In this document: piece after piece, positions 323-50,816 of the stretch | Position numbering within the stretch: position 1 is the first letter of the stretch | Layout: the number at the start of each line of letters is the position of its first letter | Assembly: GCA_964552565.1 (NCBI GenBank) | Contig: CAZKGL010000001.1 | Span: 307,061-371,060 of the forward strand | Source of the DNA: an uncultured Gammaproteobacteria bacterium | Lineage (GTDB): Bacteria; Patescibacteriota; Patescibacteriia; UBA9934 | Length of the DNA: 64,000 nucleotides | Direction: 5' to 3' | The notes under the pieces: model-generated | Database searches by the model: none | Seen by the model: the letters and a program-made list of their open reading frames with translations, nothing else | What the model was told of the DNA's origin: nothing | Made by a program: the position numbers and the translations under genes

Positions 323-430
323 GGCCGGGTCCTGCCGCCTTCGCACCCTGTCGCGCTGAGCGCGACCCTGTTGGGCGCTCGACTGGCGTCTACGCGCCCA
401 AGCAGGGGACCTGCTCGGCGTCACCCGGCT
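323..430 (+). repeat. Interspersed long-hairpin repeat, copy A. It carries an extra internal palindrome insertion GTCGCGCTGAGCGCGAC.
   Basis: Near-identical to the sequences at 15689-15783, 46214-46308 (reverse complement) and 50724-50816. The termini GGCCGGG...CCCGGCT are inverted repeats. Confidence 0.8.
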
Positions 431-450
431 GTCGTGTGAGCCTGGCTCTG

Positions 451-476
451 AAGCTCAGCTTCGAAGCTGAGCTTCC
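451..476. repeat. Perfect 26-bp palindrome GAAGCTCAGCTTCGAAGCTGAGCTTC. It could be a hairpin terminator or a protein-binding site.
   Basis: Exact 13-nt inverted repeat read directly; no T-run follows. Confidence 0.5.
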
Positions 477-628
477 GAGTTGTGCATAACGACCGTTGAC
501 AACGTGTCCATGAAGATGATGAACTGAAGATACGCAAAATCAATAAGACTATTGATTTTGGGCTCAACGAAAAAGCTTCCCTACTTCTTTATGAAGTGTT
601 GGGGAGCTTTTCGTTTGTCAAAATGCAT

Positions 629-701
629 GGGCCTGTCAGCATAACGGTAATGCTATCGGCGTTGAGCCCCGAGTATGTCGGTTCGAATCCGGTCGGGTCC
701 A
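629..701 (+). tRNA. tRNA, class I cloverleaf, anticodon read as UGA. Acceptor stem has G3-U70 and A73 (alanine-type identity elements); the genomic 3' end reads ACACCA. Identity is unresolved.
   Basis: Hand fold: acceptor GGGCCTG/CGGGTCC, D-stem AGCA/TGCT, anticodon arm TCGGC-GTTGAGC-CCCGA with one C-C mismatch at 31-39, T-arm GTCGG-TTCGAAT-CCGGT, short variable loop. Confidence 0.55.
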
Positions 702-711
702 CACCACGAAA

Positions 712-1263
712 ATGTGCTACACTATCGTCATGCCCGACGAAGGGACGGAGAAGAGCGTGACCAGTAATATGCTCGCACCGGAAAGCGGTGCGAAGGTTGA
801 GGCTGCCACGGAGGCGGCGCCGGAAAAGCCGCTGGAGATGCACGGCGCGGACATGGAGGAGCCCGAGCCGCAGCCCAAGGAACAAGAACATCCCGCGTCC
901 CCGCCGCAGCCCCCCGAGCCCGCACCGGCTCCTGCGCCCGCCGCCGCGCCGCCGGCAAAGGACAAGGCGGTCGTCGATGTGGAGAACATCCTCGCGTCCG
1001 GCCTCGAAGCGATGTACACGCAGCTGCCCGATGCAAAGAAGACGGCGTTCCGGCAGAAGGGCGAAGAGGTCGCGCGCGCCATCGTGCAGATGTTCCAAAC
1101 CGGAAGGGTAAAGGTCCATGCCATCCTCGACGCCATCCGTGACTGGCTGCGCATGATTCCCGGCGTGAACAAGTTTTTCTTGGAACAGGAAGCAAAGATC
1201 AAGACCGACCGCGTCCTCGCGTACGGCGAGAAGGCGTCGAAGGAGCAAACTAACGAAGTCTAG
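712..1263 (+). CDS. Hypothetical protein with a Pro/Ala/Glu-rich low-complexity N-terminus and a C-terminal globular domain. Alternative start at 730.
   Basis: Long ORF immediately upstream of the coupling ATPase; no recognisable family. Confidence 0.4.
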   Translation: MCYTIVMPDEGTEKSVTSNMLAPESGAKVEAATEAAPEKPLEMHGADMEEPEPQPKEQEHPASPPQPPEPAPAPAPAAAPPAKDKAVVDVENILASGLEAMYTQLPDAKKTAFRQKGEEVARAIVQMFQTGRVKVHAILDAIRDWLRMIPGVNKFFLEQEAKIKTDRVLAYGEKASKEQTNEV

Positions 1264-1282
1264 TGTGGGAGGAGCGCTTGTC

Positions 1283-3802
1283 ATGACGGCATACGCGAAG
1301 ACGTCCGGTCTCAACACCGCGTCCGACCTTTCGTTTGCCCCGTACCTCGTCGTTGCGGCGATCCTCGCGGCCATCGTCGCGGTTGCGTTTTTCGTGGCGC
1401 GGTCGATGCTGCGCAAGAAATCGCGCCAGCGGGGCGGGGCGTACACGAACGTCACGCTCATGGTGACGATCCCCAAGTTCCGCAGCGAGGAAGAGGCGAA
1501 GGGCAACGACACCCAGCAGACCGTCAAGGAGTCGATTGCGATCGCCGAAACGTTCTTTTCCGCGGTCGGCGGCTTGAAGCCGGAGCACGGGTTGAAGGCG
1601 TGGCTGTACGGCCGCCCGGATTCCCTTGCGCTCGAGATCGTCGCGCACGCAAAGCTGGTGACGTTCTTCGTGACGGTGCCGCGGTATCTGCAGGAGTTCA
1701 TCGAACAGCAGCTCCATGCACAGTACAGCGACGCGCACATCGAGCCGGTCGAGGACTACAACCTGTTTGCGCCGACGGGCACGGTGCTCGGCGGCTATTT
1801 GACGTTAAAGCGCCAAAGCGTCTTCCCGCTCAAGACGTACAAGGAGCTCGATTCGGACCCCATGAACGCGCTCACGAACGCGTTGTCGAAGGTGCAGGAG
1901 GGCGACGGCGTTGCGGTGCAGTACATCGTGCGGCCAGCGCACCACGGCTGGCGCGAGCTTGGCGCGAAGATCGTGCGCAACATGAACAACGGCATGACGC
2001 TCGAGGAAGCGACGAAGGGCAAGTCGATGGCGAGCTGGTTTGCGACGAAGGAAGACGTCGAAAAGAAAAAAGAGGAGAAGCGCGAGCGCAAACTCTCCCA
2101 AGCTGAGCAGAAGATGGTCGAGGGGATCGGCAACAAGATCAGCAAGGCCGGCATGGAGGTCAATGTGCGCGTCGTGTCGTCCGCGCAATCGGCGGACACC
2201 GCGCTTGCGAACCTGAACAACGTGCTCCAGGCGTTCAGCCAGTACAACATTTACGAATACGGCAATTCGTTCAGCAAGGTCATCCCGCCGGGGAAGGGCA
2301 AGCTTATCGACGCGTTCATTTTCCGCACGTTCGAGGAGCGCCAGCGCGTCATCCTGAACACGGAAGAGATGGCGTCGCTCTGGCACCTGCCGCTCCCGTC
2401 GACCGATACCCCGAACATCCGCTGGATGCTTGCGCGCGTCGCGCCGGCGCCGACGAACACCCCGACCGAGGGCCTCTTGCTCGGGTTCAATACGTTCCGC
2501 GGCGTGAAGAAGGACGTCTACCTCAAGGATGCCGACCGCCGACGCCACCTGTACATCATCGGTAAAACGGGCGCCGGTAAGTCGGAGTTCATCAAGAACC
2601 AGGCGATCCAGGATATCCGGAACGGCAAGGGCGTCGCGGTCATCGACCCGCACGGCGACCTGGCGGACGGGCTGCTTGAACTCATCCCGAAGCATCGTTA
2701 CGACGACGTCATCTACTTCAATCCGTCCGACATGGAGCGCCCGATGGGTCTCAACATGCTCGAGGCGCCCAACGAGCAGATGCGCGACTTCGCCGTGCAG
2801 GAGATGATCAGCATCTTCTACATGCTGTTCCCGCCGGAGATGATCGGTCCCATGTTCGAGCACAACATGCGCAACTACATGCTGACGCTCATGGCCGACG
2901 TCGAGCATCCGGGCACCATCGTCGAGATCCCGCGCATGATTGCGGACGAGAAGTTCCAGCAGCAGTGGGTCGCGAAGGTCAAGGACCCGGTGGTGCGCAG
3001 CTTCTGGGAGGACGAGATGGCGAAGACGAGCGACTACCACAAGAGCGAGATGATGGGCTACCTCGTCAGCAAGGTCGGCCGTTTCGTCGAGAACGAGATG
3101 ATGCGCAATATCATCGGCCAGTCGAAGAGCGCGTTCAACTTCCGCGAGATCATGGACGAGGGCAAGATCCTCCTCGTTAACCTGTCGAAGGGCAAGACCG
3201 GCGAGGTGAACGGGAACCTCCTCGGCCTCATCCTTGTCGCGAAGCTCCAGATGGCGGCGTTCACCCGCGCGGACATCCCGGAGCCGGAGCGCAAGGATTT
3301 CTACCTGTACATCGACGAGTTCCAGAACTTCGTCACGCCGTCGATCGCCACGATCCTTTCCGAGGCGCGTAAGTACCGCCTGAACCTCGTGATGGCGCAC
3401 CAGTACATGGGGCAGCTTGTGAAGGACGGGAGGAGCGAGATCCGCGACGCTGTGCTTGGCAACGTCGGCAGCATGTTCGTGTCACGCATCGGTCCTGAAG
3501 ACACGGAGGTGCTTGCGAAGATCTACGAACCGACCTTCTCGCCGTACGACCTCATGAACAATGAGGCATACAGCTGGAATGCGAAGATCATCATCGACAA
3601 CTCGCAGGAGAAGCCGTTTACGCTCAAGGCGTATCCCCCGGAGAAGGGAAAGCCGAAGGTGGGCGAGGCCCTGAAGGAGATCTCGCGCCTCCTGTACGGA
3701 CGCGACAAGGGCATCGTGGAGCGCGAAATTACGATCCGCGCCGGGCTCGGCATGAAGCCGCCCGTAAAGCCCGTCGCCCCTGTTTCACCTCCAAGCCTCT
3801 AG
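1283..3802 (+). CDS. TraD/VirD4/TrwB-family type IV secretion coupling-protein-like ATPase with an N-terminal TM helix. Alternative start at 1265.
   Basis: Walker A IIGKTGAGKSEF followed by VIDPHGD (TrwB/T4SS-DNA-transfer signature). Walker B/TraG-D_C-like YLYIDEFQNF...VMAHQYMGQL. GGGAGGAG lies 8 nt upstream of ATG 1283. Confidence 0.6.
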   Translation: MTAYAKTSGLNTASDLSFAPYLVVAAILAAIVAVAFFVARSMLRKKSRQRGGAYTNVTLMVTIPKFRSEEEAKGNDTQQTVKESIAIAETFFSAVGGLKPEHGLKAWLYGRPDSLALEIVAHAKLVTFFVTVPRYLQEFIEQQLHAQYSDAHIEPVEDYNLFAPTGTVLGGYLTLKRQSVFPLKTYKELDSDPMNALTNALSKVQEGDGVAVQYIVRPAHHGWRELGAKIVRNMNNGMTLEEATKGKSMASWFATKEDVEKKKEEKRERKLSQAEQKMVEGIGNKISKAGMEVNVRVVSSAQSADTALANLNNVLQAFSQYNIYEYGNSFSKVIPPGKGKLIDAFIFRTFEERQRVILNTEEMASLWHLPLPSTDTPNIRWMLARVAPAPTNTPTEGLLLGFNTFRGVKKDVYLKDADRRRHLYIIGKTGAGKSEFIKNQAIQDIRNGKGVAVIDPHGDLADGLLELIPKHRYDDVIYFNPSDMERPMGLNMLEAPNEQMRDFAVQEMISIFYMLFPPEMIGPMFEHNMRNYMLTLMADVEHPGTIVEIPRMIADEKFQQQWVAKVKDPVVRSFWEDEMAKTSDYHKSEMMGYLVSKVGRFVENEMMRNIIGQSKSAFNFREIMDEGKILLVNLSKGKTGEVNGNLLGLILVAKLQMAAFTRADIPEPERKDFYLYIDEFQNFVTPSIATILSEARKYRLNLVMAHQYMGQLVKDGRSEIRDAVLGNVGSMFVSRIGPEDTEVLAKIYEPTFSPYDLMNNEAYSWNAKIIIDNSQEKPFTLKAYPPEKGKPKVGEALKEISRLLYGRDKGIVEREITIRAGLGMKPPVKPVAPVSPPSL

Positions 3803-3824
3803 TGTGCTAGTCTAGGCACACTAT
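3803..3824. promoter_or_regulatory. 22-bp perfect palindrome AGTGTGCTAGTCTAGGCACACT between the coupling ATPase stop and the dnaX start; possible operator.
   Basis: Inverted repeat read directly in the 20-nt intergenic gap. Confidence 0.35.
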
Positions 3825-5328
3825 GGCCGAGACGCTCTACCGCAAATACCGCCCACAGACCTTTGCCGATGTCGCCGAGCAGGACCATGTCCGGCGTACC
3901 GTCGAGAACCAGCTGAAGACCGACACGGTCGCGCACGCGTACCTCTTTTCGGGTCCGCGCGGCGTCGGCAAGACGACGATTGCCCGTCTCCTCGCAAAGG
4001 CGGTGAACTGTACCGGACGCGCCGCGGGGCAGAGCGAGCCGTGTAATGCGTGCTCGCATTGCGCCGACTTCGCCGCAGGGAGGTTTTTGGACGCCATCGA
4101 GATCGACGCGGCGTCGCACACCGGCGTCGACAACGTCCGCGAAAACGTCATCGAGAACGTCCGTTTTGTCCCGCAGCGGGGCAAGTACAAGGTCTTCATC
4201 ATCGACGAAGTGCACATGCTCTCGACGAGCGCGTTCAACGCGCTCCTGAAAACGCTCGAGGAACCGCCGGCGCACGTCATGTTCATTTTCGCCACGACCG
4301 AACTCCACAAGATTCCCGCGACCATTGTCTCGCGCTGCCAGCGGTTTGATTTCCACCGTATCCCGGCGGACGAGATGGTGGGGCGCCTCGGCCGTATTGC
4401 AAAGGCGGAGGGCGTCACCGTCGACGAGGACGTGCTGCGCACCATCGCGAAGCTCCCGGAGGGCTGCCTGCGCGACGCGGAGAGCCTGTTCGGCCAGGTC
4501 TTGTCCGTCGGCGGGCCGCAGATCACCGCGGAGTCGGCGTCGGCCGTGTTGCCGATGACGACCATCGCGCTTGTGCGGGACCTTCTCGAGTGCGTGGTCG
4601 TGAAGGACATGCCGGGCATCATCGCCAAGCTCACGGCCTTTGTTGACGAGGGCGGATCGGTGAAACAGCTGCACGATGAGCTGATTGAGGAGGCGCGCGA
4701 CGTCATGTGCGCGGCGATCGAGGGGAAGGAGGCGGCGGTTGACGCGGCCTCGGCGCGCCGCCTGCTCGACCTGTTGCTTGCTGCGCGGAACCGCCCGTCG
4801 CTCGCCATCCTTCCGCAGCTGCCGCTTGAACTGGCATTGGTCGAATTTGTGCTTGGCAATCCGTCGGCCCCTGCCACGCCCTCCGCACCGCCTCCGGCCC
4901 CTCCCAGGGGAGGAGGGGAGCCGCGCGGGCTTGTCGGGCCGCGTCCTGCACAGCCCCCACACCATCCCACCACCCCACCATCCACCAACGACACGACGCC
5001 GTCCGGCGCGCTCTCTTTTACGCTTGACGATATCCAGAACAAGTGGGAGCGATGCTGCGACTATGTCGCGGACCGGAACGTGGCGCTGCCGCTCGTGCTG
5101 CGCGCCGGCAAGCCGATGACGGTCGAGGGGAACCGCGTGACGATCGGCTTCGCGTACGGGTTCCACGCCGACGCCTGCAAGGAACAGAAAAACATCCGCC
5201 TTATCGAAGACGCGGTCGCGGCGGTCATGATGGAGCGGCCGATCGTCGGCGTCGCGGTGTTGCCGCAAACGAACACCGACCCGCTCGGCGACCTTGCGGC
5301 CGCGTTCGGCGGATCGGTGGTGGGCTAG
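3823..5328 (+). CDS. dnaX: DNA polymerase III subunit gamma/tau
   Basis: N-terminus YRPQTFADVAEQDHV...AYLFSGPRGVGKTTIARLLAKAVNC, then the CxxC zinc module and the DEVHML box. A Pro-rich linker contains a copy of the CCACCATC-type repeat. Confidence 0.9.
   Translation: MAETLYRKYRPQTFADVAEQDHVRRTVENQLKTDTVAHAYLFSGPRGVGKTTIARLLAKAVNCTGRAAGQSEPCNACSHCADFAAGRFLDAIEIDAASHTGVDNVRENVIENVRFVPQRGKYKVFIIDEVHMLSTSAFNALLKTLEEPPAHVMFIFATTELHKIPATIVSRCQRFDFHRIPADEMVGRLGRIAKAEGVTVDEDVLRTIAKLPEGCLRDAESLFGQVLSVGGPQITAESASAVLPMTTIALVRDLLECVVVKDMPGIIAKLTAFVDEGGSVKQLHDELIEEARDVMCAAIEGKEAAVDAASARRLLDLLLAARNRPSLAILPQLPLELALVEFVLGNPSAPATPSAPPPAPPRGGGEPRGLVGPRPAQPPHHPTTPPSTNDTTPSGALSFTLDDIQNKWERCCDYVADRNVALPLVLRAGKPMTVEGNRVTIGFAYGFHADACKEQKNIRLIEDAVAAVMMERPIVGVAVLPQTNTDPLGDLAAAFGGSVVG
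4957..4987. repeat. In-frame oligo-repeat CCACACCATCCCACCACCCCACCATCCACC (CCACCATC-type), copy 1, inside dnaX. It encodes PPHHPTTPPST.
   Basis: Shares the (CCACCATC)n core with 38644-38675 and 45415-45447. Confidence 0.6.
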
Positions 5329-6136: not shown

Positions 6137-6196
6137 AGTGGAGCAAGCGTAGGCGAAGCGCTTGGATATTGCAACGTCAGCAGTCCGGTTGACGGA

Positions 6197-10610: not shown

Positions 10611-11459
10611 ATGACGAAAAGCGAGCGGATCCGGAAGATACGGCGGGGATTACTGGCGTGGTTTCGCCGCAAGGGCAGGGGTTTGCCATGGCGCAAGACG
10701 AGCGACCCGTACCGCATCGTCGTGTCGGAAGTCATGCTCCAGCAGACGCAAGTGCGCCGCGTCATCCCGAAGTACCGCGCGTTCCTCAAACGATTTCCGA
10801 CATGGCGCGCGCTCGCCCGCGCAACACAAGCCGACGTGGTGCGCATGTGGCACGGCCTCGGCTACAACCGGCGCGCAATGATGCTCCACCGGTTGGCGCA
10901 AGCGGTCGGTGAAGAGGAACTGCCGCGCGATCATGCATCGCTCATCACGCTTCCCGGCATTGGGACGTACACGGCAGAGGCGGTGCGCGCGTTTGCGTTC
11001 CGTGTTCCTGGCGCCGCACCGGTCGACACGAACATCGAGCGCATTTTGAAGCGCGTGTTCGGTGCGCACACGAAGCCGCGGGATGCTGTCCAGGCGTTGG
11101 CACACGAGGTCGTCCCGAGCGATGTGTGGAGCTGGAACCACGCCATGATGGACCTTGGCGCGACGGTCTGCACCGCACGTGCGCCGTTATGTACGGCATG
11201 TCCACTGCAGTCGGCATGTGCGTCGTATCCGTGCGCCGGGAATGACGTGAAGAAGCGTCCGCAGAAGAAGTTCGCGGATTCGGACCGCATGTATCGCGGC
11301 CGCATTATCGCCGTGCTCCGCGCAAAGGCGCACGACCCCGATGCGCTGCAGGCGGCCGTGCGGCTCGACGACGAGGAGCGGTTCGGCCGGCTTGTGGACA
11401 ACCTCACTGCCGAGGGGCTCGTTCGGCTGAAACGTGGTAGACTAGAGCTCAAATACTAA
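10611..11459 (+). CDS. HhH-GPD base-excision DNA glycosylase (MutY/Nth family) with a 4Fe-4S loop
   Basis: WRKTSDPYRIVVSEVMLQQTQV...GLGYNRRA...PGIGTYTAEAV and the C-x6-C-x2-C-x5-C cluster CTARAPLCTACPLQSAC. Confidence 0.7.
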   Translation: MTKSERIRKIRRGLLAWFRRKGRGLPWRKTSDPYRIVVSEVMLQQTQVRRVIPKYRAFLKRFPTWRALARATQADVVRMWHGLGYNRRAMMLHRLAQAVGEEELPRDHASLITLPGIGTYTAEAVRAFAFRVPGAAPVDTNIERILKRVFGAHTKPRDAVQALAHEVVPSDVWSWNHAMMDLGATVCTARAPLCTACPLQSACASYPCAGNDVKKRPQKKFADSDRMYRGRIIAVLRAKAHDPDALQAAVRLDDEERFGRLVDNLTAEGLVRLKRGRLELKY

Positions 11460-11728: not shown

Positions 11729-12564
11729 TACTCCTGGGCGCGGGCTGTACCGCCATCGTCCCGGACGCCACGACGTCCGAGGAGATCGACTTTCATGCCG
11801 GCGCGGCGTTCACCATCGAACAGACGTGGTTCGGCATCAACACGCCGCAGCGGGAAGCGTACGGCAAGCGCAACGTCACGGTCGACGAGTGGGCGGCGAA
11901 CGAATCCACGACGCTTTCGTGGACGATGACGTCGCGGCAGGAGACCGAGGCGTCGGTCGCGGCGCGCGAGGCGGCGTCGCAGGTGCCCATCGGGGAAGAG
12001 GCGAGCGTCCCCGACCCCGTCTACGAAGACGTGACGACGACGGGGTCCGTCATGACCGATGCGCTCAACAATGCGGAGCGCATCCTGCTCCCGTCGTACT
12101 GGCCGCAAGGCGCGTACGACGTGCGCGGCGAAGAGAACAGCGTCGTGTGGCTCTCGCGCCAGCAGTACGACGAGCTCGTGTCGACGAGGTCCTCGCATAT
12201 CGCCATCGGCCTGTTTGACGCGACGCTCCAGAATCTCATCGATTTTGGAGAAGGCGTGTCGAACGCCCTTGCGAAACTCCAGGGAGAGCTCGCGGCGCAG
12301 GAGACATCGAACACCGATATTACCAAGCTCGAAGCCGAAGGCGACTGGGGATCAATGACGTTGACGGTGAACGGCGAGCCGACTACCGTACGCACCATAG
12401 CGGCCACGAGCGCTTTTGCGGACTACGTCATTCTCGCCAATCCCGAGAACCCGCTCATCCTCAAGGTCTCCATCAAGCCGCTGTCGCTCGGGTTCGGGAT
12501 GCTTTCCACGCTCAGCGTGGTGAAGTCCCTTGCCGGATACGAAATTACTTCACTCACTTACTAA
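11677..12564 (+). CDS. Putative lipoprotein. The start overlaps the thioredoxin gene by ~52 nt and is uncertain.
   Basis: Signal peptide MRVNRLRIAQGLGAGVLVLLGAGC has a positive n-region and a lipobox-like LLGAGC. Confidence 0.45.
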   Translation: MRVNRLRIAQGLGAGVLVLLGAGCTAIVPDATTSEEIDFHAGAAFTIEQTWFGINTPQREAYGKRNVTVDEWAANESTTLSWTMTSRQETEASVAAREAASQVPIGEEASVPDPVYEDVTTTGSVMTDALNNAERILLPSYWPQGAYDVRGEENSVVWLSRQQYDELVSTRSSHIAIGLFDATLQNLIDFGEGVSNALAKLQGELAAQETSNTDITKLEAEGDWGSMTLTVNGEPTTVRTIAATSAFADYVILANPENPLILKVSIKPLSLGFGMLSTLSVVKSLAGYEITSLTY

Positions 12565-15688: not shown

Positions 15689-15783
15689 GGCCGGGTCCTG
15701 CCGCCTTCGCACCCTGTTGGGTGCTCGACTCGTCGGACTCGTCTGCGCGCCCAAGCAGGGGACCTGCTCGGCGTCACCCGGCC
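15689..15783 (+). repeat. Interspersed long-hairpin repeat, copy B, ending 6 nt upstream of tRNA-Arg
   Basis: GGCCGGGTCCTGCCGCCTTCGCACCCTGTTGGG...CCCAAGCAGGGGACCTGCTCGGCGTCACCCGGCC. Termini GGCCGGG/CCCGGCC are complementary. Confidence 0.8.
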
Positions 15784-15789
15784 GTTTCC

Positions 15790-15866
15790 GCACCCGTAGC
15801 TTAGCTGGATAAAGCGCCTCCCTCCGAAGGAGGAGACCGTGCGTTCGAATCGCGCCGGGTGCACCA
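15790..15866 (+). tRNA. tRNA-Arg (anticodon CCG), CCA encoded
   Basis: Acceptor GCACCCG/CGGGTGC, anticodon arm CCTCC-CTCCGAA-GGAGG, T-loop TTCGAAT, A73 plus CCA. Confidence 0.85.
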
Positions 15867-15921
15867 CGAGAGACTGACCAAAAAGGTCAGTTTTTCGTTT
15901 TTATGCTATTGTCGATGGCGT

Positions 15922-23187: not shown

Positions 23188-23274
23188 GCGACGACAACGT
23201 CGCGCGTCCGGATACTCGGCACGAGGTTCTCCTCGCGCCGATCTCCGGCCGAATGGATCGACCGAGGAGGCACA

Positions 23275-23604
23275 ATGTTCGAGCTCGTGGTCTTTTATAT
23301 CGTGTACATGGTTTTCTTGTCCGCCGCCCTTGGTTTGGGCTCGGTGGTGGGGGCGCGAGTGCCGCGCACGCGCCGTCGACCGGTGGCGATTGGAGCCATC
23401 TTCGGCTTCGTGTTCTTCTTCCTGTCTACGATTGTCGTAGCGCTGATGGGGATGCACAACGCCATGAGCATCATCGTGGCGTGTGCCGTGGTGCACAATT
23501 TTTCTGGGGGACTCCTCATTCGGTTCGTGCTGCAGATCATCAGTGAGCGTCACCGCTCGGCCGACGCCATTCGCCGCCTCTACCCTGACGACCACGTGCA
23601 GTGA
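23275..23604 (+). CDS. Array gene 2: small polytopic membrane protein (109 aa)
   Basis: Leader ...CCGGCCGAATGGATCGACCGAGGAGGcacaATG; about 3 TM helices. Confidence 0.55.
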   Translation: MFELVVFYIVYMVFLSAALGLGSVVGARVPRTRRRPVAIGAIFGFVFFFLSTIVVALMGMHNAMSIIVACAVVHNFSGGLLIRFVLQIISERHRSADAIRRLYPDDHVQ

Positions 23605-23867
23605 TGACGAGCATCGCCGCGTTCGTGTTCATGTCTTCGCTGCCGACTGCAGCGTACGTCGTCGCCGCGCTGTTCCTCGGGAGCGGCGCACTGCACTGGC
23701 GCAGTGCGTATCCGGCTGTAGGCCCGATTGTGGGCTGTGCGTGTGGGCATATCGTCGGAGCGCTGTTGGGCGAGATGATCGTGCAGGATCAGCTGATGTG
23801 GCCCGCCGCAATCGTGGTCCTGGCCGTCTACGTCGTCATGCACTTCGTGATCGCGTATTGCAGGTAG
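23604..23867 (+). CDS. Array gene 3: small membrane protein (87 aa)
   Basis: ATG overlaps the upstream stop (TGATG). About 3 TM helices. Confidence 0.45.
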   Translation: MTSIAAFVFMSSLPTAAYVVAALFLGSGALHWRSAYPAVGPIVGCACGHIVGALLGEMIVQDQLMWPAAIVVLAVYVVMHFVIAYCR

Positions 23868-23972
23868 GTGGCCCCGTCGCTCGCGAGCGACGGGGCGGGC
23901 CGGACGTCGAGATGAGGAAACGCCTCGTCTCGATCACCGGCCGAATCAACCAATCGGCCCCGGAGGTTGCCA

Positions 23973-24167
23973 GTGGTCCGTACCGTGTTGCGTATCTTCG
24001 TTCTCGGCATCATCATCGGGATCGTTGCGTCACTCGTCGGGGAGGGGTTGTTCGGCCACGACAGTCCCGTGCGGGCGCGGATGATGACCGCGGGCGCCGC
24101 GGTTCTGCTCATGCTCGGGCTTCCGGACCTTTGGGACATGTGGAAGGCGAAGAAGCGGGAGGGGTGA
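23973..24167 (+). CDS. Array gene 4: small membrane protein (~64 aa). GTG start proposed; an alternative TTG start lies at 23967.
   Basis: GGAGG sits 6 nt upstream of the GTG; 2 TM helices. Confidence 0.4.
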   Translation: MVRTVLRIFVLGIIIGIVASLVGEGLFGHDSPVRARMMTAGAAVLLMLGLPDLWDMWKAKKREG

Positions 24168-24323
24168 GCATCTGTCCGGCGTTTGCTCGCTCGTGTCGCG
24201 CGACGATTCCTCGAAGTCGTCGCGCCGCCGTCAATGTTCGAGTGTTCAAAAATGGCCGATCGTCATTTTTTGAACACATGGTCATCGACGGCCGAATGGA
24301 TCGACCGAGGAGGTACCTGTCCC

Positions 24324-24551
24324 ATGTTCCGCGCCATGCTCGCCCGCGTCCGTACGATGGATGCTGACGAGATCATCCTCTACTTCTGGTCGCCAACGGC
24401 CCTGCTGCTCATCATCCCGGGGATCTTCATCCGGGAAGTGGCTGCCCAGCAGGCGTTCGGCAAGCTGATGTTCGGGTGGCTGGTGTTCACTCCGCTCCTG
24501 TACCTCATCGTCTGCCTGGTTCGACGCGGGCCCGTGAAGACCGCCTCGTGA
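24324..24551 (+). CDS. Array gene 5: small membrane protein (75 aa)
   Basis: Same GGCCGAATGGATCGACCGAGGAGG leader module as gene 2; 2 TM helices. Confidence 0.5.
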   Translation: MFRAMLARVRTMDADEIILYFWSPTALLLIIPGIFIREVAAQQAFGKLMFGWLVFTPLLYLIVCLVRRGPVKTAS

Positions 24552-24726
24552 CGCCGACGGACGACGAGCTGGACCTGTTCCCTGAACTTCGTGACGACCG
24601 CTAGCCAGTCGTCCTGCCGGATCCTCGGCATCACCGGTTCGCGGTGGTGCCAAGTCCCGGCCGAAGGTGTGCGGCGCGGGAATGTCCCCGCGCGGCATGC
24701 GTGACCACCGGCCAACGGAGGACGTC

Positions 24727-25014
24727 ATGATCGTCATGATGTTCGTAGCAATCCTCAGCGCACCGGTGCACGCCGCCGATGCGTTCGCGTCATGGCCGCC
24801 GCCTGAGCCGCCGCAGCAGGAGGACGAGTGTGCGGGCGAGCTCGCCGAGGCGAACGCCCGCATTGTCGAGCTCGAGGAGGCGCTCATCGACGCGGAATGC
24901 GACACGGTGCGTGACCGCTGGGTTTCCCGTGTGGAAGATATTGTCACTGGGCTCGTCGTGGCGGGCGTCCTTGGCGCGCTGGTCTGGCTCAAGCCGGACC
25001 ACACGGGTCGCTGA
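24727..25014 (+). CDS. Array gene 6: small secreted or bitopic protein (95 aa) with a signal peptide, coiled coil and C-terminal TM
   Basis: Leader ...CCACCGGCCAACGGAGGacgtcATG. Signal peptide MIVMMFVAILSAPVHAADA. Confidence 0.5.
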   Translation: MIVMMFVAILSAPVHAADAFASWPPPEPPQQEDECAGELAEANARIVELEEALIDAECDTVRDRWVSRVEDIVTGLVVAGVLGALVWLKPDHTGR

Positions 25015-25019
25015 TCGAG

Positions 25020-25280
25020 ATGCGCGCACTTCGGACGCTGCTCCTCGCGGTCGCCGTGGCGCCGATCGTCGGCGTGTGGGCGTTCCCGCTGGGCGGGTTG
25101 CTCGCGGTCGCCATCTACGCGGTTCTCCTTGGCATCGGCCGCGCGGAGGACGCGGCGTGGTGCCTGCTCGGCTTCCCGTGCGCCGGGCTTGCGCTCGTCG
25201 GCCTGTCGCGCTCCCACGAGGAGCGGTGGCTTGCCGCCATTCCCATGCCGTCGCCCGACGATACGCCGTTCGCGGCGTGA
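25020..25280 (+). CDS. Array gene 7: small membrane protein (86 aa)
   Basis: Starts 5 nt after the gene 6 stop; ~3 TM helices; no own SD. Confidence 0.4.
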   Translation: MRALRTLLLAVAVAPIVGVWAFPLGGLLAVAIYAVLLGIGRAEDAAWCLLGFPCAGLALVGLSRSHEERWLAAIPMPSPDDTPFAA

Positions 25281-25398
25281 TGTCGGACAGCCGGACGTCG
25301 AGATGAGGGAACGCCCTTGTCTCGATCACCGGCCGAAGGTGTGCGGCGCGGGAATGTCCCCGCGCGGCATGCGTGACCACCGGCCAACGGAGGCCACC

Positions 25399-25728
25399 AT
25401 GGGCATCGTCATCGTCACTCTTTCCGTTTCCGCTGCGTGGATCATCGGGCTGGCGGCGCTCCTCGGACTCATGGATCCATGGCCCCTCTTCTCCCGGAAC
25501 ATCCGAGAGTGGATGCTGGCCGCGGCTCCGGTCCCGCCCGTCCGCCCGATGTCGCCGATCGTGTCGCCTGCGCTCCTCATGATGTCCGGCATTGTGCTCA
25601 TCGCCGCATCGCTGCCCCTCGTCACTATGGAGTGGGGATGCCTTTCGAGGATCATCCTCATCATCATCGGAGGGGCGTTCGTCGCCACCGCGCTCACGCG
25701 GATCCACCGGTACTTCACGGTGGGCTAG
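25399..25728 (+). CDS. Array gene 8: small polytopic membrane protein (109 aa)
   Basis: Same CCGGCCGAAGGTGTGCGGCGCGGGAATGTCCCCGCGCGGCATGCGTGACCACCGGCCAACGGAGG leader as gene 6. Confidence 0.5.
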   Translation: MGIVIVTLSVSAAWIIGLAALLGLMDPWPLFSRNIREWMLAAAPVPPVRPMSPIVSPALLMMSGIVLIAASLPLVTMEWGCLSRIILIIIGGAFVATALTRIHRYFTVG

Positions 25729-25828
25729 CGGGAACGCCGTCCGGATACTCGGCACGAGGTTCTCCTCGCGCCGATCTCCGGCCGAACTGTTCGGTCCCGT
25801 TCCGTCCAACCCTGTCCCCGGAGGTTCC

Positions 25829-44930: not shown

Positions 44931-44972
44931 GTACCTGGGTGCTGGCTCGTGCCGCGCCCAGGTCGTTTTTTT
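44931..44972. terminator. Hairpin ACCTGGG...CCCAGGT followed by T8
   Basis: Read directly. Confidence 0.55.
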
Positions 44973-45037
44973 CTACGAAGATGCACCGCCCTTGTGAGGC
45001 GGTGCATGGGGACGGAACCAGCGTCCGTCGAGCGCGG

Positions 45038-45244: not shown

Positions 45245-45264
45245 GGGGCACCTCCGCCACCAGG

Positions 45265-46206
45265 CTACACGCCGAGCTCCGCGTTGGCAATGTCGGCGTA
45301 GCCGCGCAGGAAGGCATCGGCGGGCATGCGCGTGCCGCCTGCGGGCTGGATCGCAAGAATGCGCAGCGCGGTCGAGCCCGTGCCGACGTACAGCGATCCG
45401 TTTTCGACAAGTACGGTGGACGGTGGGATGGTGGGATGGTGGGATGGCGACGCAGCGAAAATTTTCAGCGTCATCGGCTGCCCATTCCGGTTCCATGTCG
45501 TCCACGTCCCGGGCCAAGGGTTATACGCGCGGATCTTCCGCTCGATGACTTCGGCCGGTTCGGCCCAGTCGATTTTTCCGTCTTCGCGGGTGAGGAGCGC
45601 ACAGAATGTCGCTTGAGTGTGATCTTGCGCTCTGGGCGTGGCTGTCCCCGCCGCGAGCTGTTTGAGCGTATCGAGAAGAAGCGGCGCGCCGTGCGCAACG
45701 ACTTTTTCCGTGAGGCTCGATGTCGTTTCGTCGGATACGACCGGGAACGTCGTTTGCGCAAGCACGGGGCCATGGTCCATCTCTGCATCAAGCAGCATGA
45801 GGGAAACGCCGGTTTCGGTTTCCCCATTCGCGATCGCGGAAATAATCGGCGACGGACCACGAAGTTTCGGCAGGAGCGAGGGGTGGACGTTGACACAGCC
45901 CATCGGCGGGATGTCGAGGACGGCCTGCGGGAGAATGCGGCCGTAGGCGATGACGACAAACGCATCCGCATCGAACGCGCGCAGCGTGTCATGGAATGCG
46001 GGATCCTTCAGCTTTGTGGGCTGGAGCACGGGGATGCCGAGGCTCATTGCCCTCGTCTTGACCGGCGACGGCGTCAGCTCCTTCTTTCTTCCGACCGGTT
46101 CATCCGACGTGGTGATCACTGCCGCAATTTCGAAAAACGGATCCGCATGGAGCGCGGAAAGGAATTGCCCGGCGAATTCCGGCGTACCAAAGAAAACGAG
46201 CTTCAT
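45265..46206 (-). CDS. fmt: Methionyl-tRNA formyltransferase
   Basis: MKLVFFGTPEFA...SLLPKLRGPSPI. Contains copy 3 of the in-frame repeat (SPSHHPTIPPST). Confidence 0.9.
   Translation of the reverse strand: MKLVFFGTPEFAGQFLSALHADPFFEIAAVITTSDEPVGRKKELTPSPVKTRAMSLGIPVLQPTKLKDPAFHDTLRAFDADAFVVIAYGRILPQAVLDIPPMGCVNVHPSLLPKLRGPSPIISAIANGETETGVSLMLLDAEMDHGPVLAQTTFPVVSDETTSSLTEKVVAHGAPLLLDTLKQLAAGTATPRAQDHTQATFCALLTREDGKIDWAEPAEVIERKIRAYNPWPGTWTTWNRNGQPMTLKIFAASPSHHPTIPPSTVLVENGSLYVGTGSTALRILAIQPAGGTRMPADAFLRGYADIANAELGV
45415..45447. repeat. In-frame repeat GGTGGACGGTGGGATGGTGGGATGGTGGGATGG (plus strand), copy 3, inside fmt
   Basis: The reverse complement CCATCCCACCATCCCACCATCCCACCGTCCACC matches the GT4 copy. 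Confidence 0.7.
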
Positions 46207-46213
46207 AGGAGAA

Positions 46214-46308
46214 GGGCGGGTGACGCCGAGCAGGTCCCCTGCTTGGGCGCGCAGACGAGTCCGACGAGTCGAGCACCCAACAGGGTGCGAAGGCGGCAGG
46301 ACCCGCCC
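46214..46308 (-). repeat. Interspersed long-hairpin repeat, copy C. It fills the def-fmt intercistronic gap in gene orientation.
   Basis: The reverse complement is identical to copy B except for termini GGGCGGG/CCCGCCC, which are a compensatory change. Confidence 0.8.
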
Positions 46309-46312
46309 GGCA

Positions 46313-46792
46313 TTACAGGCGCGACTTTACGTGGTTGATGATGTTCGTGGCGCGGTCGATGAACAGGATGCCGTCGAGGTGGTCGATCTCGTGCTGGAAA
46401 ATAATGGCCAGCAGTCCGTTGGCTTTCAGCGCGAGTTCCTCGCCCTTGCGGTTCTTCGCCTTTACCTTGACGCTCGAGTGGCGCTTCACCGCGCCGGAAA
46501 TGCCCGGGACGGAGAGGCAGCCCTCGATGCTCGTCACCATGCGCACCGAACGCGAGGTGATCTCGGGATTGATAAACGCCTCCACGCCATGCGGCGTCTC
46601 GACGATGATGATGCGCTGGTGCGCGCCAACTTGCGGCGCCGCGATGCCGACGCCGTTTTCTTCCGCCATCGTCTCGATGAGGTTGTCGATGAGCGCCTGC
46701 GTCTTCGCATCCGAAAGCTGCGCGTCGGTTACGGGCTGGGACACGACGCGGAGTTCAGGATTCGGATTGTGGAGCACGGTGAGTGCGGACAT
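46313..46792 (-). CDS. def: Peptide deformylase
   Basis: GIAAPQVG, EGCLS and HEIDHLDG motifs. Start taken at MSALTVLHNP; it overlaps the priA 3' end by ~38 nt. Confidence 0.85.
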   Translation of the reverse strand: MSALTVLHNPNPELRVVSQPVTDAQLSDAKTQALIDNLIETMAEENGVGIAAPQVGAHQRIIIVETPHGVEAFINPEITSRSVRMVTSIEGCLSVPGISGAVKRHSSVKVKAKNRKGEELALKANGLLAIIFQHEIDHLDGILFIDRATNIINHVKSRL

Positions 46793-48551
46793 AGGTCTGG
46801 TCGACGGAAATGACTGCGGTATCGGGAAGCGCGGCGAGTTGCGCGATGCTTGCGGAAAGCGTGTCGTAGGGGATGCGGCCGATGGCACCGAGGATCTCGG
46901 GTTCGGGGATGAACGGCGCGCCGACGACCGCGGCGACCGCTTCGGCATCGGCGTGGCGTACGGTGATGACCGCGCCGTAGGGCGGCAGGGCGTACCGTTC
47001 GCGGACCGCGCGTTCGTTCGTGAGGAACACGTCGGCATCCGTCATTGGGACGATGGCGTCGGGCATCCAGGTTTGGATGACGCAGGACGCGCCTTGCTGC
47101 CGGGCGAACTGCGACAGGCGGTGCAGCTTGCGCGCAGTCGTTTCCGCAGCGCGGAAATCGTCGGGGTTCATGGACAGGTCGATGCACGCGTCCGCGACAA
47201 GACCGAAGGCCTTTGGCGCAAACGGCGCGGCAACGTTCGCGAAGTAATACTCCGTCACGAGCAGGACATTCGCGTCCACGTCCGGCGGGCGACCCTTTTC
47301 GATGCGCGCGATCGTCGTTCCGGGCAGGAACTCGGCAAGCGATTTTTCGAGATGCGCGTTGCCGATGCCTTTTAGGCCAAGCCTGCCGTGCGTACACGAG
47401 GGGCAGGCGTCGGGGATCGGGAATGACGCCCGGCATCGGGGGCATTCGCACGCAGCGTCCGCAACCTTCGGGATACTGCCGCAGTCCCGGCAGGTCAAGA
47501 CGTGCCCGCAACTGCGGCACTGGACTCGCCTCGCCACCCCCTTGCGGTTGTAGAAAAGTAGCACCTTTTTTTGGCTTTGTAAAGCGGTTTTCATTTCCGC
47601 GAGCAGGCGCTCGGTGACGAGCTCGCTGCCGGTGGACTCTTCGGGACGCCGGAGGTCGACGACGACCGCCTGCGACGGCGCCAAAACGACGCTCCGGTCC
47701 GCGGCGCTGCGGTCTTCGGGGCGGGGGAGGCTGTCGCACAGGACAAGCGGGGCGCCGTGCTGCGCAGCTTGGGCTTCTGCGGCCAGGCGGGTGTCGAGGC
47801 GCGGGTTCCTGCGGTTCGAAAAGTGGTCGTCCGTCCCCGTCGTCATGACGAGCACGAGCCCGATGCGCTTTGCCGGCAAGAGGGAGGCTTGGAGCGTCCC
47901 GATGAGCGTGGTGACGGCGCCGCTGCGCCATGCATGGATGATGCGCTCGCGTTCCGCGGGCTTGGTGTGGCCGTGGAGCACCGCCGTGTGTCCGCCGAAC
48001 GCGATCGTCCTGCCGAGCAGGTCGGCGTCGCGTTCGCGCGGGACGACGATGAGGAGCTGTTCCCGCGTCCGCTTGCGCAGCACTTGGGCGAGGGCATAGG
48101 CGCCTTCGGGGGAGAGCTGGCACGAAAGCGTCATTGCGCCGTCGAGCGCGGCGACGGCGGCGCTGACGGCGTCGGCGACCTCGCGGGGCAGCGACAACGA
48201 TGCGGGCGACGCATGCGCGGCGCGCGGCAACGCGCGGTCGCCGTTTGGGGCGCCGAAGGCGTAGTGGAGGAGCGTCGACGGCGATTGGGCGATCGCCTGC
48301 GCGAGCGAGGTGGTCCGCGCGATGTCGCCGGCGCCGAGCGCCGCGGGGAACGCCACGTCCTGCACGTCCGAGAGGTCGCCGCGGACCTCGGTCACGTCGG
48401 AGAGCGCGGCGACGGCGCCGACGATCGTGCGGCCGTGGAAGGGGACGCGCACGAGGTCGCCCACCGCAACGCGGACGCCGTCGGGGACGCGATAATCAAA
48501 CACGCCGAACCTCCTCGGCAGACGCAAGAGTGGGAGGATGCGGGCGAACAT
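46755..48551 (-). CDS. priA: Primosomal protein N' (PriA)-like with degenerate helicase motifs
   Basis: PriA N-terminus (FDYRVP...VRVPFHGR) and the Cys-rich zinc region CRSCGH...CRDCGS...CPRC...CPSC. No clear Walker A. Confidence 0.6.
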   Translation of the reverse strand: MFARILPLLRLPRRFGVFDYRVPDGVRVAVGDLVRVPFHGRTIVGAVAALSDVTEVRGDLSDVQDVAFPAALGAGDIARTTSLAQAIAQSPSTLLHYAFGAPNGDRALPRAAHASPASLSLPREVADAVSAAVAALDGAMTLSCQLSPEGAYALAQVLRKRTREQLLIVVPRERDADLLGRTIAFGGHTAVLHGHTKPAERERIIHAWRSGAVTTLIGTLQASLLPAKRIGLVLVMTTGTDDHFSNRRNPRLDTRLAAEAQAAQHGAPLVLCDSLPRPEDRSAADRSVVLAPSQAVVVDLRRPEESTGSELVTERLLAEMKTALQSQKKVLLFYNRKGVARRVQCRSCGHVLTCRDCGSIPKVADAACECPRCRASFPIPDACPSCTHGRLGLKGIGNAHLEKSLAEFLPGTTIARIEKGRPPDVDANVLLVTEYYFANVAAPFAPKAFGLVADACIDLSMNPDDFRAAETTARKLHRLSQFARQQGASCVIQTWMPDAIVPMTDADVFLTNERAVRERYALPPYGAVITVRHADAEAVAAVVGAPFIPEPEILGAIGRIPYDTLSASIAQLAALPDTAVISVDQTYVRTHRAPQSES

Positions 48552-49342
48552 CAGTCCATCATGAAATGCACGACCGCATAGCCGACGCCGAACGGGTGCT
48601 CGTAGCTCATGATGCTCGGCGTCATGGCGGTGCCTTCGAGCACGCCAAGGAGGATGAGGAGCTTCTGGTACGCCGACTCCTGGGCATGGCGGCGCAACGA
48701 CTCATCCATGTGCATGAGCCCGACCGCATTATGATGCTCGAGCGCGGTGAGGAGCGTTTCGTCGTAGCGGATGCCGTCCTCGTGGAACCCGCCCGGCGCG
48801 AAATCGGTCAGCGTGTGGGCGAGGTCGCCTGCGGAGATGACGGCGATCCGCTTGCGGCTTTCCACCAGCGTCGGTTTCAAGGCCTGGCCGAACGCGAAGT
48901 GCGCCTTCGGGTCAAGGCCGGAAGGGCTGATGGGCACGATACGGATGTGCGGCAATTTTTCCGTGAGGAACTCGAGTGGGACCGCGGCGGAAAAATGGAG
49001 GCGGTCGTCGGTCGACAGCGACACGGGCTCGCCGGCCTGGCGCAATGCGCGCTGCAGGGCGTCGATGAGGGGAAAGTCGGGATGGTACGTCTTCTGGTAC
49101 CCGAGGTAGCCGACGTCGGAGAGGTCGCAGCGGTACGGATCGCTCACCGAAATCGAGAAGGCGTCATCGTACTGCGTCGGGTGGTCGGAGAGGAGGAGGA
49201 TGGTGTCCGGCTTTGCCGCGTACAGCTCGCCGGCGAGCTCCTCGAGCGCGTCGCGGGTCTTGGCGACTGCGCCAATGCGGTCGCCCGCAACGGGCGGCAG
49301 GAGGAGCGGCGAGTTTGGGACGTGTGCGGCAAAGACGATCAT
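48551..49342 (-). CDS. Class III extradiol dioxygenase / MEMO-like superfamily protein
   Basis: N-terminal AAHVPNSP (HxxP-type) and VISAGDLAHTL resemble LigB/Memo signatures. Confidence 0.4.
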   Translation of the reverse strand: MIVFAAHVPNSPLLLPPVAGDRIGAVAKTRDALEELAGELYAAKPDTILLLSDHPTQYDDAFSISVSDPYRCDLSDVGYLGYQKTYHPDFPLIDALQRALRQAGEPVSLSTDDRLHFSAAVPLEFLTEKLPHIRIVPISPSGLDPKAHFAFGQALKPTLVESRKRIAVISAGDLAHTLTDFAPGGFHEDGIRYDETLLTALEHHNAVGLMHMDESLRRHAQESAYQKLLILLGVLEGTAMTPSIMSYEHPFGVGYAVVHFMMD

Positions 49343-49351
49343 ATGGCGCGG

Positions 49352-50707
49352 TTATTCGGCGATGTCTGCACCGAGCGGGTGGAGCGCGAGCGTCCCGTCG
49401 TCGATGGTGACGATATCATCCCACGACCAGCCGTACGCAAGGAAGACCTGTTCGGACGCGATCGCGCGGCGCATGCCGTCGGTAATGACGTACACGACCG
49501 GCGTCGACCCCTTCACGAGGTAGCCGTCGGGCAGGAGGAGCGCGTCGCCCTCGCGGAATTGTTCGATGACGACCGGCGCGACGCTCGTCGGCGTCTGTCC
49601 GGGGAACCGCGCGTCTGCGATCGCCGGGTCGGTGATGACGTGGCGCGTGCCGTCCTGAATGAAGTATCGCGTCCCGTTCGTGCTCAACTGGTACAGGGTG
49701 CCGGTCGGAGCGACGGTCGCCGTCGTGATGGGTTCGCCCTCGCCATACGTCTCACGGTCTTCGTTCGTGATATCCACGATCTCGTCCTCGCTGAACCCGA
49801 CGGCGCGGAACGCCTCCATGCTTTCGATGTGCCGCAGGCTGTCGTCGACCAAGAGGAAGATGCTGCCGTCCTCGTCGCGCAGGAGGCTGTAGTTGGGGAA
49901 ACTGATCGGGGCACCGTCCGCGTAGTTGTCGAGCGTCGTCTTGCTGACCGGGATGATGAGATCCTCGTTAAAGCGCGAGAGGAGCGCGCTGCGGCTCGTG
50001 ATGGGGCGGCGGTAGCCATACTCGATGAGGTAGACGCCGGGCTCGCCGACGGCCTGGAGGAGCGACCCGGTCGGGTATTCGGCGCCAAACCAGCGGTCCC
50101 AGATGGCCGCGAAGTTTTCGTTGCCGTGGAGGTGGGGCGTGTACGCGTAGAGCGCGGCGGTCGCGGCGTTTTCCGGCACGACGGTCGTGCCGTCGATCGT
50201 CACCGGGATGTCCGGGCCGTACTTGCCCTGCGTAATGCCGTCACTTTCAATATCTGCAAGATAGCCTTCGCTGAACTGCATCGCCGCGGAATTCACTTGC
50301 TTGCCAAAGCCCTTCCAGCGTTGGATGGCCGGGTCGTCCATGCTGCAGTCGTCGCACACGGCGTAACCCGCTGCCCAGTCGAGCTGCTTCTGCGTGGGCT
50401 CGTCGTCCTCGACGAGACTCTGCTCTTTTTGCAGCAGCACGAGGAGGAAGCGGGGGCTGACGCCATGCATTTGCGCGGCGCGCCAGATAATGTCCGCCGC
50501 ATACCGCGTGACGCCGGCATAGTCCTCGGTTTTGTAGTCGCCGAGGTATCCGCGCTCGAGGTAGGCCTGGATTTGGTTTCGGTCGAGCGAAAAAGGGTTG
50601 GTGAGTTCGTCGTCGGAGATGATGTAGTCGGGGTTGAACGCAAGCGCCGGAGCAATCGGCGCGAACGTAACACCAAAAATCGCAAGCGTAGCAAATAGAC
50701 GCTTCAT
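49352..50707 (-). CDS. Secreted hypothetical protein (451 aa), possibly cell-wall related
   Basis: Signal peptide MKRLFATLAIFGVTFAPIAPALA; no confident family. Confidence 0.4.
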   Translation of the reverse strand: MKRLFATLAIFGVTFAPIAPALAFNPDYIISDDELTNPFSLDRNQIQAYLERGYLGDYKTEDYAGVTRYAADIIWRAAQMHGVSPRFLLVLLQKEQSLVEDDEPTQKQLDWAAGYAVCDDCSMDDPAIQRWKGFGKQVNSAAMQFSEGYLADIESDGITQGKYGPDIPVTIDGTTVVPENAATAALYAYTPHLHGNENFAAIWDRWFGAEYPTGSLLQAVGEPGVYLIEYGYRRPITSRSALLSRFNEDLIIPVSKTTLDNYADGAPISFPNYSLLRDEDGSIFLLVDDSLRHIESMEAFRAVGFSEDEIVDITNEDRETYGEGEPITTATVAPTGTLYQLSTNGTRYFIQDGTRHVITDPAIADARFPGQTPTSVAPVVIEQFREGDALLLPDGYLVKGSTPVVYVITDGMRRAIASEQVFLAYGWSWDDIVTIDDGTLALHPLGADIAE

Positions 50708-50723
50708 AGATTTCCATTATAGC

Positions 50724-50816
50724 AAAAATCGGGTCCTGCCACCTTCGCACCCTGTTGAGTGCTCGACTGGCGTCTGCGCGCTCAACAGGGGACCTGCTCG
50801 GTGTCACCCGGTTTTT
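50724..50816 (+). repeat. Interspersed long-hairpin repeat, copy D, antisense to the flanking genes
   Basis: AAAAATCGGG...CCCGGTTTTT termini, with two internal compensatory pairs relative to copy B. Confidence 0.75.

Follow-up and report, generated by a model that had tools for sequence, protein, structure and literature searches.

A 64,000-nt stretch of contig CAZKGL010000001.1 (assembly GCA_964552565.1, positions 307,061 to 371,060), hereafter the window, contains four copies (A to D) of an element of about 100 nt that pairs with itself into one long imperfect hairpin. We interpret this element as, probably, a non-autonomous, hairpin-forming interspersed repeat of a new family, with a REPIN-like build and likely selfish in nature. 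The comparison of orthologous spacers shows, at the sequence level, that the element is inserted DNA, present in the genome of the window and absent from the same spacers in relatives. A homologue with a nearly identical core was found in a second phylum, the Omnitrophota. The family was previously undescribed and is not a demonstrated member of the REP/RAYT family or of any family of MITEs (miniature transposable elements with inverted repeats) derived from an insertion sequence (IS).

The copies are located at 323-430 (A, 108 nt, plus strand), 15689-15783 (B, 95 nt, plus strand), 46214-46308 (C, 95 nt, minus strand) and 50722-50818 (D, 97 nt, plus strand, including an extended basal stem, GCAAAAATCGGG/CCCGGTTTTTGC). 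These are the places given in a first-pass annotation of the window, except that the extended terminal stem it had recognised in copy D, which includes one G.U pair, widens that copy slightly. Each copy carries two conserved arms. Both the left arm (GGGTCCTGCCRCCTTCGCACCCTGT) and the right arm (CAGGGGACCTGCTCGGYGTCACCCG) occur exactly four times in the window at 0-1 mismatch, compared to 0.00 occurrences in shuffled sequences. In copy A, the left arm lies at 327-351 (GGGTCCTGCCGCCTTCGCACCCTGT) and the right arm at 403-427 (CAGGGGACCTGCTCGGCGTCACCCG), both on the plus strand. The other left arms are at 15693-15717 (plus), 46280-46304 (minus) and 50731-50755 (plus, one mismatch), and the other right arms at 15756-15780 (plus), 46217-46241 (minus) and 50786-50810 (plus, one mismatch). 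A covariance model built from the copies retrieved the same four and no others in the window, with scores of 81.6 bits for A, 111.8 for B, 111.5 for C and 96.7 for D. Decayed solo arms were not found beyond chance in the window (15 weak matches at ≤8 mismatches, against 4-11 in shuffles). The copies are young: their arms differ at 0-1 positions, and decayed copies are missing from the window. Similarity between them ends at the element borders, and their flanks are mutually unrelated. Since identity stops at these borders, the copies are not pieces of a larger duplicated segment, which disposes of the trivial explanation that the first-pass annotation had itself named as a possible refutation.

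The plan of the element is built on two conserved inverted ends of approximately 25 nt each, which pair with one another in a constant pattern of bulges and internal loops. The variable spacer between them makes up the apical stem, and outside the arms the element is closed by a stem that is short and variable. The asymmetric core of the element is nearly invariant and consists of a CCU loop, a C bulge, a UUC/UC loop and a GACC bulge. Copy C has a core identical to that of copy B, and the two differ in their basal stem (GGGC/GCCC in C, GGCC/GGCC in B). Copy D is separated from B solely by G:C to A:T transitions (four compensated pairs and one G.U) and two indels. The additional palindromic insert previously reported in copy A lies in the 5' side of the stem (352-371) and comprises a 13-nt palindrome (CGCGCTGAGCGCG, 352-364) followed by a second ACCCTGT, so that the palindrome is bracketed by a 7-nt direct repeat of this motif. 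The palindrome has no other occurrence in the window as a separate repeat.

The pairing of the 5' and 3' halves is borne out by folding. As RNA, the copies reached minimum free energies of -51.7 to -58.5 kcal/mol, with z scores from -2.6 to -7.2, the latter for copy D. All stem substitutions preserve pairing, and the three compensatory exchanges listed in the first-pass annotation were correct: GGCC/GGCC versus GGGC/GCCC between B and C, and both CGCC/GGCG versus CACC/GGTG and TTGGG/CCCAA versus TTGAG/CTCAA between B and D. In an alignment of five sequences, the fifth being the Omnitrophota homologue, 95.7% of the cells were paired and 10 pairs were altered on both sides, values that none of 500 shuffles reached, while slid alignment registers dropped to about 40% paired. 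In these five sequences, the substitutions are pair-preserving beyond chance, a point that the annotation had proposed to check on all genomic copies. For copy D alone, a simple simulation gave a chance of ~2e-5 that its four core substitutions would produce two compensated pairs. In our assessment, compensatory changes alone do not indicate a functional RNA, because hairpin-dependent mobile DNA such as REPINs has the same pattern (PMC3116915). Compensated pairs could also arise without selection, through quasi-palindrome template switching, yet this process would tend to erase conserved asymmetries, and those of the element have been kept. Neither strand folded better across the copies. Three independent non-Watson-Crick pairs in the copies of the window are G.U on the consensus strand, and the Omnitrophota copy carries an A.C pair on that strand, which limits the wobble evidence for the consensus strand to 3:1. 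With neither strand consistently more stable and a wobble bias of 3:1, the folded form may be RNA or single-stranded DNA.

The protein encoded by fmt in the window is identical to MBI1908094.1, annotated as belonging to a Candidatus Uhrbacteria bacterium and recorded on two contigs, the larger of 838,942 bp and the other, which we examined, being the 44-kb JACOUU010000014.1 (GCA_016177675.1). Judging from its sequence, the host is a member of Candidatus Uhrbacteria, with a Candidate Phyla Radiation (CPR)/Patescibacteria genome of <1 Mb and a GC content of 63%. The independent assembly GCA_016177675.1 contains identical copies B, C and D within the same flanks. In addition, two independent short-read assemblies (Logan contigs L007 and L008) stop inside copy B at ...GCACCCTG, which is exactly where copies A and B diverge and is typical of a repeat. 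Separately, JACOUU010000014.1 and Logan contig L009 terminate at window positions ~14278 and ~58430-58730, neither of them at an element copy; the latter falls in a 300-nt intergenic region with polypurine/polypyrimidine runs.

The first-pass annotation had also suggested a search of related genomes, and this search provided empty orthologous sites in two Uhrbacteria relatives (L003 and L005), whose fmt is 65-66% identical and whose synteny extends over about 20 kb. The def-fmt spacer, 106 nt long in the window, measures 3 nt in L003 and 34 nt in L005. Similarly, the spacer between the lipid-desaturase gene and the next gene is 143 nt in the window and 48 nt in L005. The covariance model had no match in the orthologous loci of either relative. 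Other observations were made at these loci. In the closest Uhrbacteria relative (P0002, fmt 70% identical), three independent short-read contigs (L047, L048 and L049) start 31-60 nt upstream of fmt, the spot where def-fmt synteny places the spacer, def itself being off the contigs. The P0002 sequence upstream of fmt (CAAGAGGTCCCTCGTAACCTCGGGATGGGAC...; positions 1-60 of L047 and L048 and 1-31 of L049) has no match to the covariance model, and a different repeat may occupy this spot. An unrelated hairpin doublet, roughly 65 nt long (GTCATCCCCGCGAATGCGGGGATCCAG...GGATTCCCGCCTGCGCGGGAATGAC), is found in relative L003 at 10942-11006 and 11945-12006, directly after fmt and again after the gene that follows it. 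In this clade, short repeats of the hairpin type may be common 3' of genes.

We scanned one genome per species from 185,579 species, a collection from which the window's own genome is evidently absent, for exact left-arm matches. The sole further homologue was found in an Omnitrophota metagenome-assembled genome (MAG; PEAF01000001.1), where it scored 74 bits. Its left arm is 23/23 identical, a figure that was forced, since this MAG was retrieved by searching with 22 nt of the left arm. For the right arm, 24/26 positions are identical, a value not imposed by the search. Overall, 47 of the 49 core positions agree between the CPR genome (63% GC) and the Omnitrophota genome (47% GC). The peripheral helices have been replaced: the apical stem (AATTTTGATGGG/CCCATAAAAATT) is unrelated to that of the Uhrbacteria copies and the basal stem (GTTGAACG/CGTTCAAC) has nothing in common with theirs, and both still pair. 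The copy lies in the ilvB-ilvN spacer, antisense to both genes.

Omnitrophota relatives retrieved through ilvB showed this site filled, reduced or empty. The spacer is 129 nt in the element-bearing MAG and 60 nt in a 93%-identical relative, in which a decayed remnant is all that is left (GCGAGGGCGGCAGGAC; L040 11743-11790 and L041 6474-6521). Apart from one substitution, this remnant matches the left arm in reverse complement, and it is still set between AGATGT and ACATCT. In relatives at 90%, 87% and 87% identity, the spacers are 18, 18 and 34 nt long, with no trace of the element. The simplest history suggested by these sequences would be one gain, followed by an internal deletion in one descendant, which is the behaviour of dispensable inserted DNA and not that of a conserved functional RNA. 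The closing stem differs among copies but always pairs, and it seems to arrive with the element, because the Omnitrophota empty sites lack it. Insertion into pre-existing palindromes was considered as the source of the complementary flanks and is not supported, as the empty sites in L042 and L044 contain no palindrome, although their spacers are short and divergent. The sequence GTTCAACAT occurs a third time in the Omnitrophota MAG, as the last codons of ilvB. In the corresponding region (L001 3231-3352), ATGTTGAAC or its complement is present three times, namely in both halves of the closing stem and in the last codons with the stop codon of ilvB. This third occurrence may stem from a 9-bp duplication of the target, from guide-like complementarity or from chance.

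Pfam searches confirmed the gene context proposed around the copies, that is, the cysS C-terminus, the SpoU methylase, def, fmt and the lipid desaturase. Copies A, B and C are in sense orientation, 3-10 nt past stop codons. Copy A begins 3 nt 3' of the cysS stop codon. Copy B begins 10 nt past that of the SpoU methyltransferase gene and ends 6 nt ahead of a tRNA-Arg(CCG) gene (15790-15866). A canonical terminator is found 3' of this tRNA (15866-15898), and copy B lies, therefore, within a transcription unit. Copy C occupies the def-fmt spacer, with 4 nt separating it from the def stop codon upstream and 7 nt from the fmt ATG downstream. Copy D is placed in the interval bounded by the stop codon of the lipid-desaturase gene (50851) and the start of the following minus-strand gene (50707). 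It is antisense to both genes, and on both strands it is bordered by an A-tract and a T-tract. The two genes had been described as convergent; they are both on the minus strand and co-directional. Over the five copies, the orientation is mixed (three sense and two antisense). Insertion sites are, thus, very short spacers, a few nucleotides past stop codons, in either orientation and tolerated inside operons. No promoter-like boxes were found. The gap from the desaturase stop codon to copy D also includes a GC-rich hairpin (GGCGGGGTCCCCGCACCCCGCC, 50827-50849). Within this hairpin, GGGTCC...GCACCC resembles the left arm minus its middle, which may be a coincidence or a relic.

The position of the copies raises the question of whether the element serves the host as a cis-acting RNA, with an mRNA hairpin that shields 3' ends from exonucleases or creates an RNase III-type site, and with selection maintaining the pairing. 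Such protection or processing has been described for some REP, ERIC and Correia copies. A distance of 3-32 nt separates every copy from a stop codon, all copies are part of transcription units, their hairpins are very stable as RNA, every stem change is compensated and the independent non-Watson-Crick pairs of the Uhrbacteria copies are all G.U on the consensus strand. Yet the orientation is antisense to the neighbouring genes in two of the five copies, no strand is more stable throughout, the G.U bias is limited to 3:1 by the A.C pair of the Omnitrophota copy, relatives lack the element at the same sites and it has decayed in one lineage. Moreover, a generic stabiliser hairpin does not need an asymmetric core that is 47/49 identical across two phyla. 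We consider this explanation unlikely, albeit with an appreciable chance of being correct. A shared, bidirectional intrinsic terminator, suggested by copy D, with its GC-rich hairpin and its A- and T-tracts on both strands, is far less probable. Copies A, B and C have no T-run, there is no room for a promoter between copy C and fmt, the real terminator downstream of copy B lies past tRNA-Arg, and the Omnitrophota copy separates ilvB from ilvN. The element is, thus, not a terminator, because its copies sit inside operons, where termination between def and fmt, SpoU and tRNA-Arg, or ilvB and ilvN would be harmful.

The conservation of the core between CPR and Omnitrophota, together with apical and basal helices that are wholly replaced and still paired, would also be compatible with a new functional RNA or single-stranded DNA module, such as a self-cleaving ribozyme or a protein-binding RNA, in which the loops form the active core and the peripheral stems vary freely. 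The multi-copy and sporadic distribution fits as well, several ribozyme classes being multi-copy and sporadically distributed. Against such a module, which we regard as quite improbable, stand the lack of an Rfam match even at permissive thresholds, the decay in L040, the absence from close relatives and the mixed orientation. An assembly artefact or a trivial larger duplication has next to no chance of being the explanation, given that the same copies are found in the same unique flanks in GCA_016177675.1 (L002 and L006) and in Logan contigs, and that the flanks of the copies are unrelated to one another. The first-pass annotation had left open a REP/BOX/MITE-like element or a structured RNA motif, with possible effects on termination. 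Its first half stands as an interspersed element, by virtue of the empty sites, the remnant, the assembly breaks, the mixed orientation and the sporadic cross-phylum distribution. The RNA and termination half is not supported, in view of the missing Rfam family, the lack of strand preference, the two antisense copies out of five and the location inside operons.

The interspersed, probably selfish repeat would spread as follows. An enzyme supplied in trans would recognise the element in a folded single-stranded form, most likely as single-stranded DNA, and copy it, and its integration would leave no target-site duplication. Recognition of a folded single strand would explain why the asymmetric core is nearly invariant in two phyla, why the apical and basal stems keep only their pairing and why all stem substitutions are compensated. 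For the host, the element probably amounts to a passenger, selfish or neutral, that is transcribed together with its neighbours, in whose transcripts it may incidentally form a double-stranded RNA segment. A bolder proposal, to which we give only a small chance, is that the invariant core serves recognition or catalysis in a mobilisation system that is specific for single strands and has not been described, or in a new RNA or DNA that processes itself. Ultra-small CPR bacteria and Omnitrophota would have exchanged it horizontally, and its integration would leave no target duplication and would bring or create a new complementary closing stem at each site.

Several points weigh against a mobile, REPIN-like repeat. 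The window contains no gene for a transposase, an HUH enzyme or a recombinase, and neither a transposition intermediate nor an insertion polymorphism within a population was seen. Target-site duplications (2-10 bp), which the first-pass annotation had recommended looking for, are absent from all five copies even when boundary shifts of 12 nt are allowed; the sole direct-repeat match at the borders is the self-palindromic GGCC of copy B, and the flanks are instead inverted-complementary, pairing outward over 4-10 bp. REP sequences consist of a palindrome of 20-50 nt behind a conserved tetranucleotide, usually GTAG (PMC8266576). Unlike in REPs, no GTAG is present by the arms in copies B, C and D or in the Omnitrophota copy, on either strand, and the single GTAG, in copy A, falls in the variable apical loop. 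Also unlike REPs, each arm alone does not fold (-2 and -3 kcal/mol; z=+0.18 and +0.09). With no target-site duplication, no GTAG and arms that are not self-folding, no mechanistically understood family fits the element. Furthermore, only five full copies are known, four of them in a single genome, which leaves few independent events behind the covariation. Loss in the Uhrbacteria relatives is formally possible, because these are distant (fmt 65-70% identical), and a function beneficial to the host might likewise account for the near-identical core in the two phyla.

Searches in databases and in the literature agreed with the novelty of the family. Rfam 15 at the gathering threshold reported three tRNAs in the window and no family for the element, and a permissive Rfam search with three copies returned solely unrelated hairpins resembling microRNA precursors, different for each copy. 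There were no matches in viral contigs with three patterns, nothing meaningful in plasmids and phages (blastn) and no matches in a metagenome scan that required both inner boxes. A metagenome scan with an 18-mer of the left arm retrieved 30 loci, all of which were chance matches. One group (L014, L017, L024 and L026) contains the full 22-mer and was rejected: there the 22-mer encodes a protein C-terminus (...ERPAAFAP, followed by the stop) and the right arm is lacking. No parent IS with matching ends was detected in the 185,579 species genomes, in plasmids and phages or in the metagenome and viral scans; exact-match scans miss diverged ends. The literature search found no description of interspersed hairpin repeats in CPR genomes. 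To our knowledge, any likeness of the arms to Tn3-family inverted repeats or ribozyme cores would be superficial, and we know of no resemblance to the cores of the hammerhead, twister, pistol, hatchet or hairpin ribozymes.

CPR genomes of <1 Mb are streamlined, and the window contains a young multi-copy element in spacers of ~100 nt between essential genes (def-fmt and SpoU-tRNA). If our interpretation is correct, selfish DNA still proliferates in these genomes. The element breaks short-read assemblies, which bears on MAG quality, and its nearly identical core in Omnitrophota points to gene flow, or to a common mobilising agent, between two groups of ultra-small groundwater bacteria. A conserved asymmetric core with freely varying helices also offers a clean substrate in the search for its recognising enzyme. 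The family stands out by its streamlined host genome, by a nearly invariant asymmetric core in two phyla and by the lack of any known signature of integration. Should the element be a mere passive repeat, it would have value as a strain marker and as an annotation flag.

The window otherwise consists of housekeeping genes, with a few additional features of note. Between copy A and a tRNA gene at 629-702, there is a perfect 26-nt palindrome (GAAGCTCAGCTTCGAAGCTGAGCTTC, 452-477). ARAGORN assigned this tRNA as tRNA-Ser(UGA), yet it is 74 nt long, lacks a long variable arm and scores 35 bits in Rfam. Downstream of cysS, copy A and this tRNA, positions 1265-3802 encode an 845-aa protein with weak matches to the TrwB/type IV secretion system coupling-protein and HerA-like ATPase domains. 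Another family of repeats, unrelated to the first, is found at 23200-25800. It includes a unit of ~84 nt at 24657 and 25329 (90% identical), a 56-nt unit at 23205 and 25738 (95% identical) and a 30-nt unit present four times, set among small genes (60-124 aa) without a Pfam match that resemble paralogous cassettes with common 5' regions.

Among known systems, integron attC sites resemble the element in that they are imperfect hairpins recognised as a folded single strand (as we propose for the element), with extrahelical bases, a variable apex and a location directly 3' of open reading frames. In contrast, attC sites conserve structure and not sequence, whereas the element conserves the sequence of its core; the R-box motifs GTTRRRY/RYYYAAC are absent from copies A-D, and the neighbours are core housekeeping genes (cysS, spoU, def, fmt and the desaturase gene) instead of cassettes, with no integrase nearby. 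ERIC sequences are imperfect palindromes, about 100-130 nt in length, that occur in either orientation in intergenic regions that are transcribed. They show high conservation between distant hosts, have size variants through internal insertions and no known transposase. The element is similar to these ERIC/IRU repeats of enterobacteria in size, location and orientation, and copy A is comparable to the ERIC variants with internal insertions, but there is no sequence similarity, and the hosts and GC content differ.

MITEs such as Correia/NEMIS, RUP and Nezha share with the element a small size, a non-coding and multi-copy nature, inverted ends, an intergenic location in either orientation, co-transcription with neighbouring genes and presence/absence polymorphism among relatives. 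Terminal inverted repeats of MITEs are at least 10-15 bp long (PMC11602168), and the imperfect inverted arms of the element reach about 25 nt. The presence/absence pattern is observed in both lineages, with empty sites in Uhrbacteria and with filled, remnant or empty sites in Omnitrophota, depending on the relative. Unlike in MITEs, whose copies are flanked by target-site duplications of 2-10 bp, no such duplication borders any of the five copies, and the stretches beyond the conserved ends are paired as inverted, not direct, repeats. Exact scans yielded no parent IS with the same ends.

In REP/REPIN-RAYT systems, the genome encodes a cognate single-copy RAYT (Y1/HUH transposase) gene, usually flanked by REPs. 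The element departs from these systems in that no RAYT gene was seen in the 64 kb checked, in its CPR host and in having a homologue in another phylum. Inheritance of REPIN-RAYT systems has been described as mostly vertical (bioRxiv 10.1101/2022.05.22.493013). A REPIN joins two inverted ends of high conservation through a more variable spacer, for which the ability to form a hairpin is critical; compensatory changes occur often, and the predicted folding takes place in single-stranded DNA or mRNA (Bertels and Rainey, PMC3116915). The element likewise combines conserved inverted ends with a less conserved, pairing spacer in a single long hairpin with compensatory changes, and it is extragenic and about 100 nt long. 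On the REPIN side, bulges act as recognition determinants: the recognition of single-stranded REP DNA by TnpA_REP needs a conserved bulge (PMC8266576), which provides a precedent for the invariant asymmetric loops of the element.

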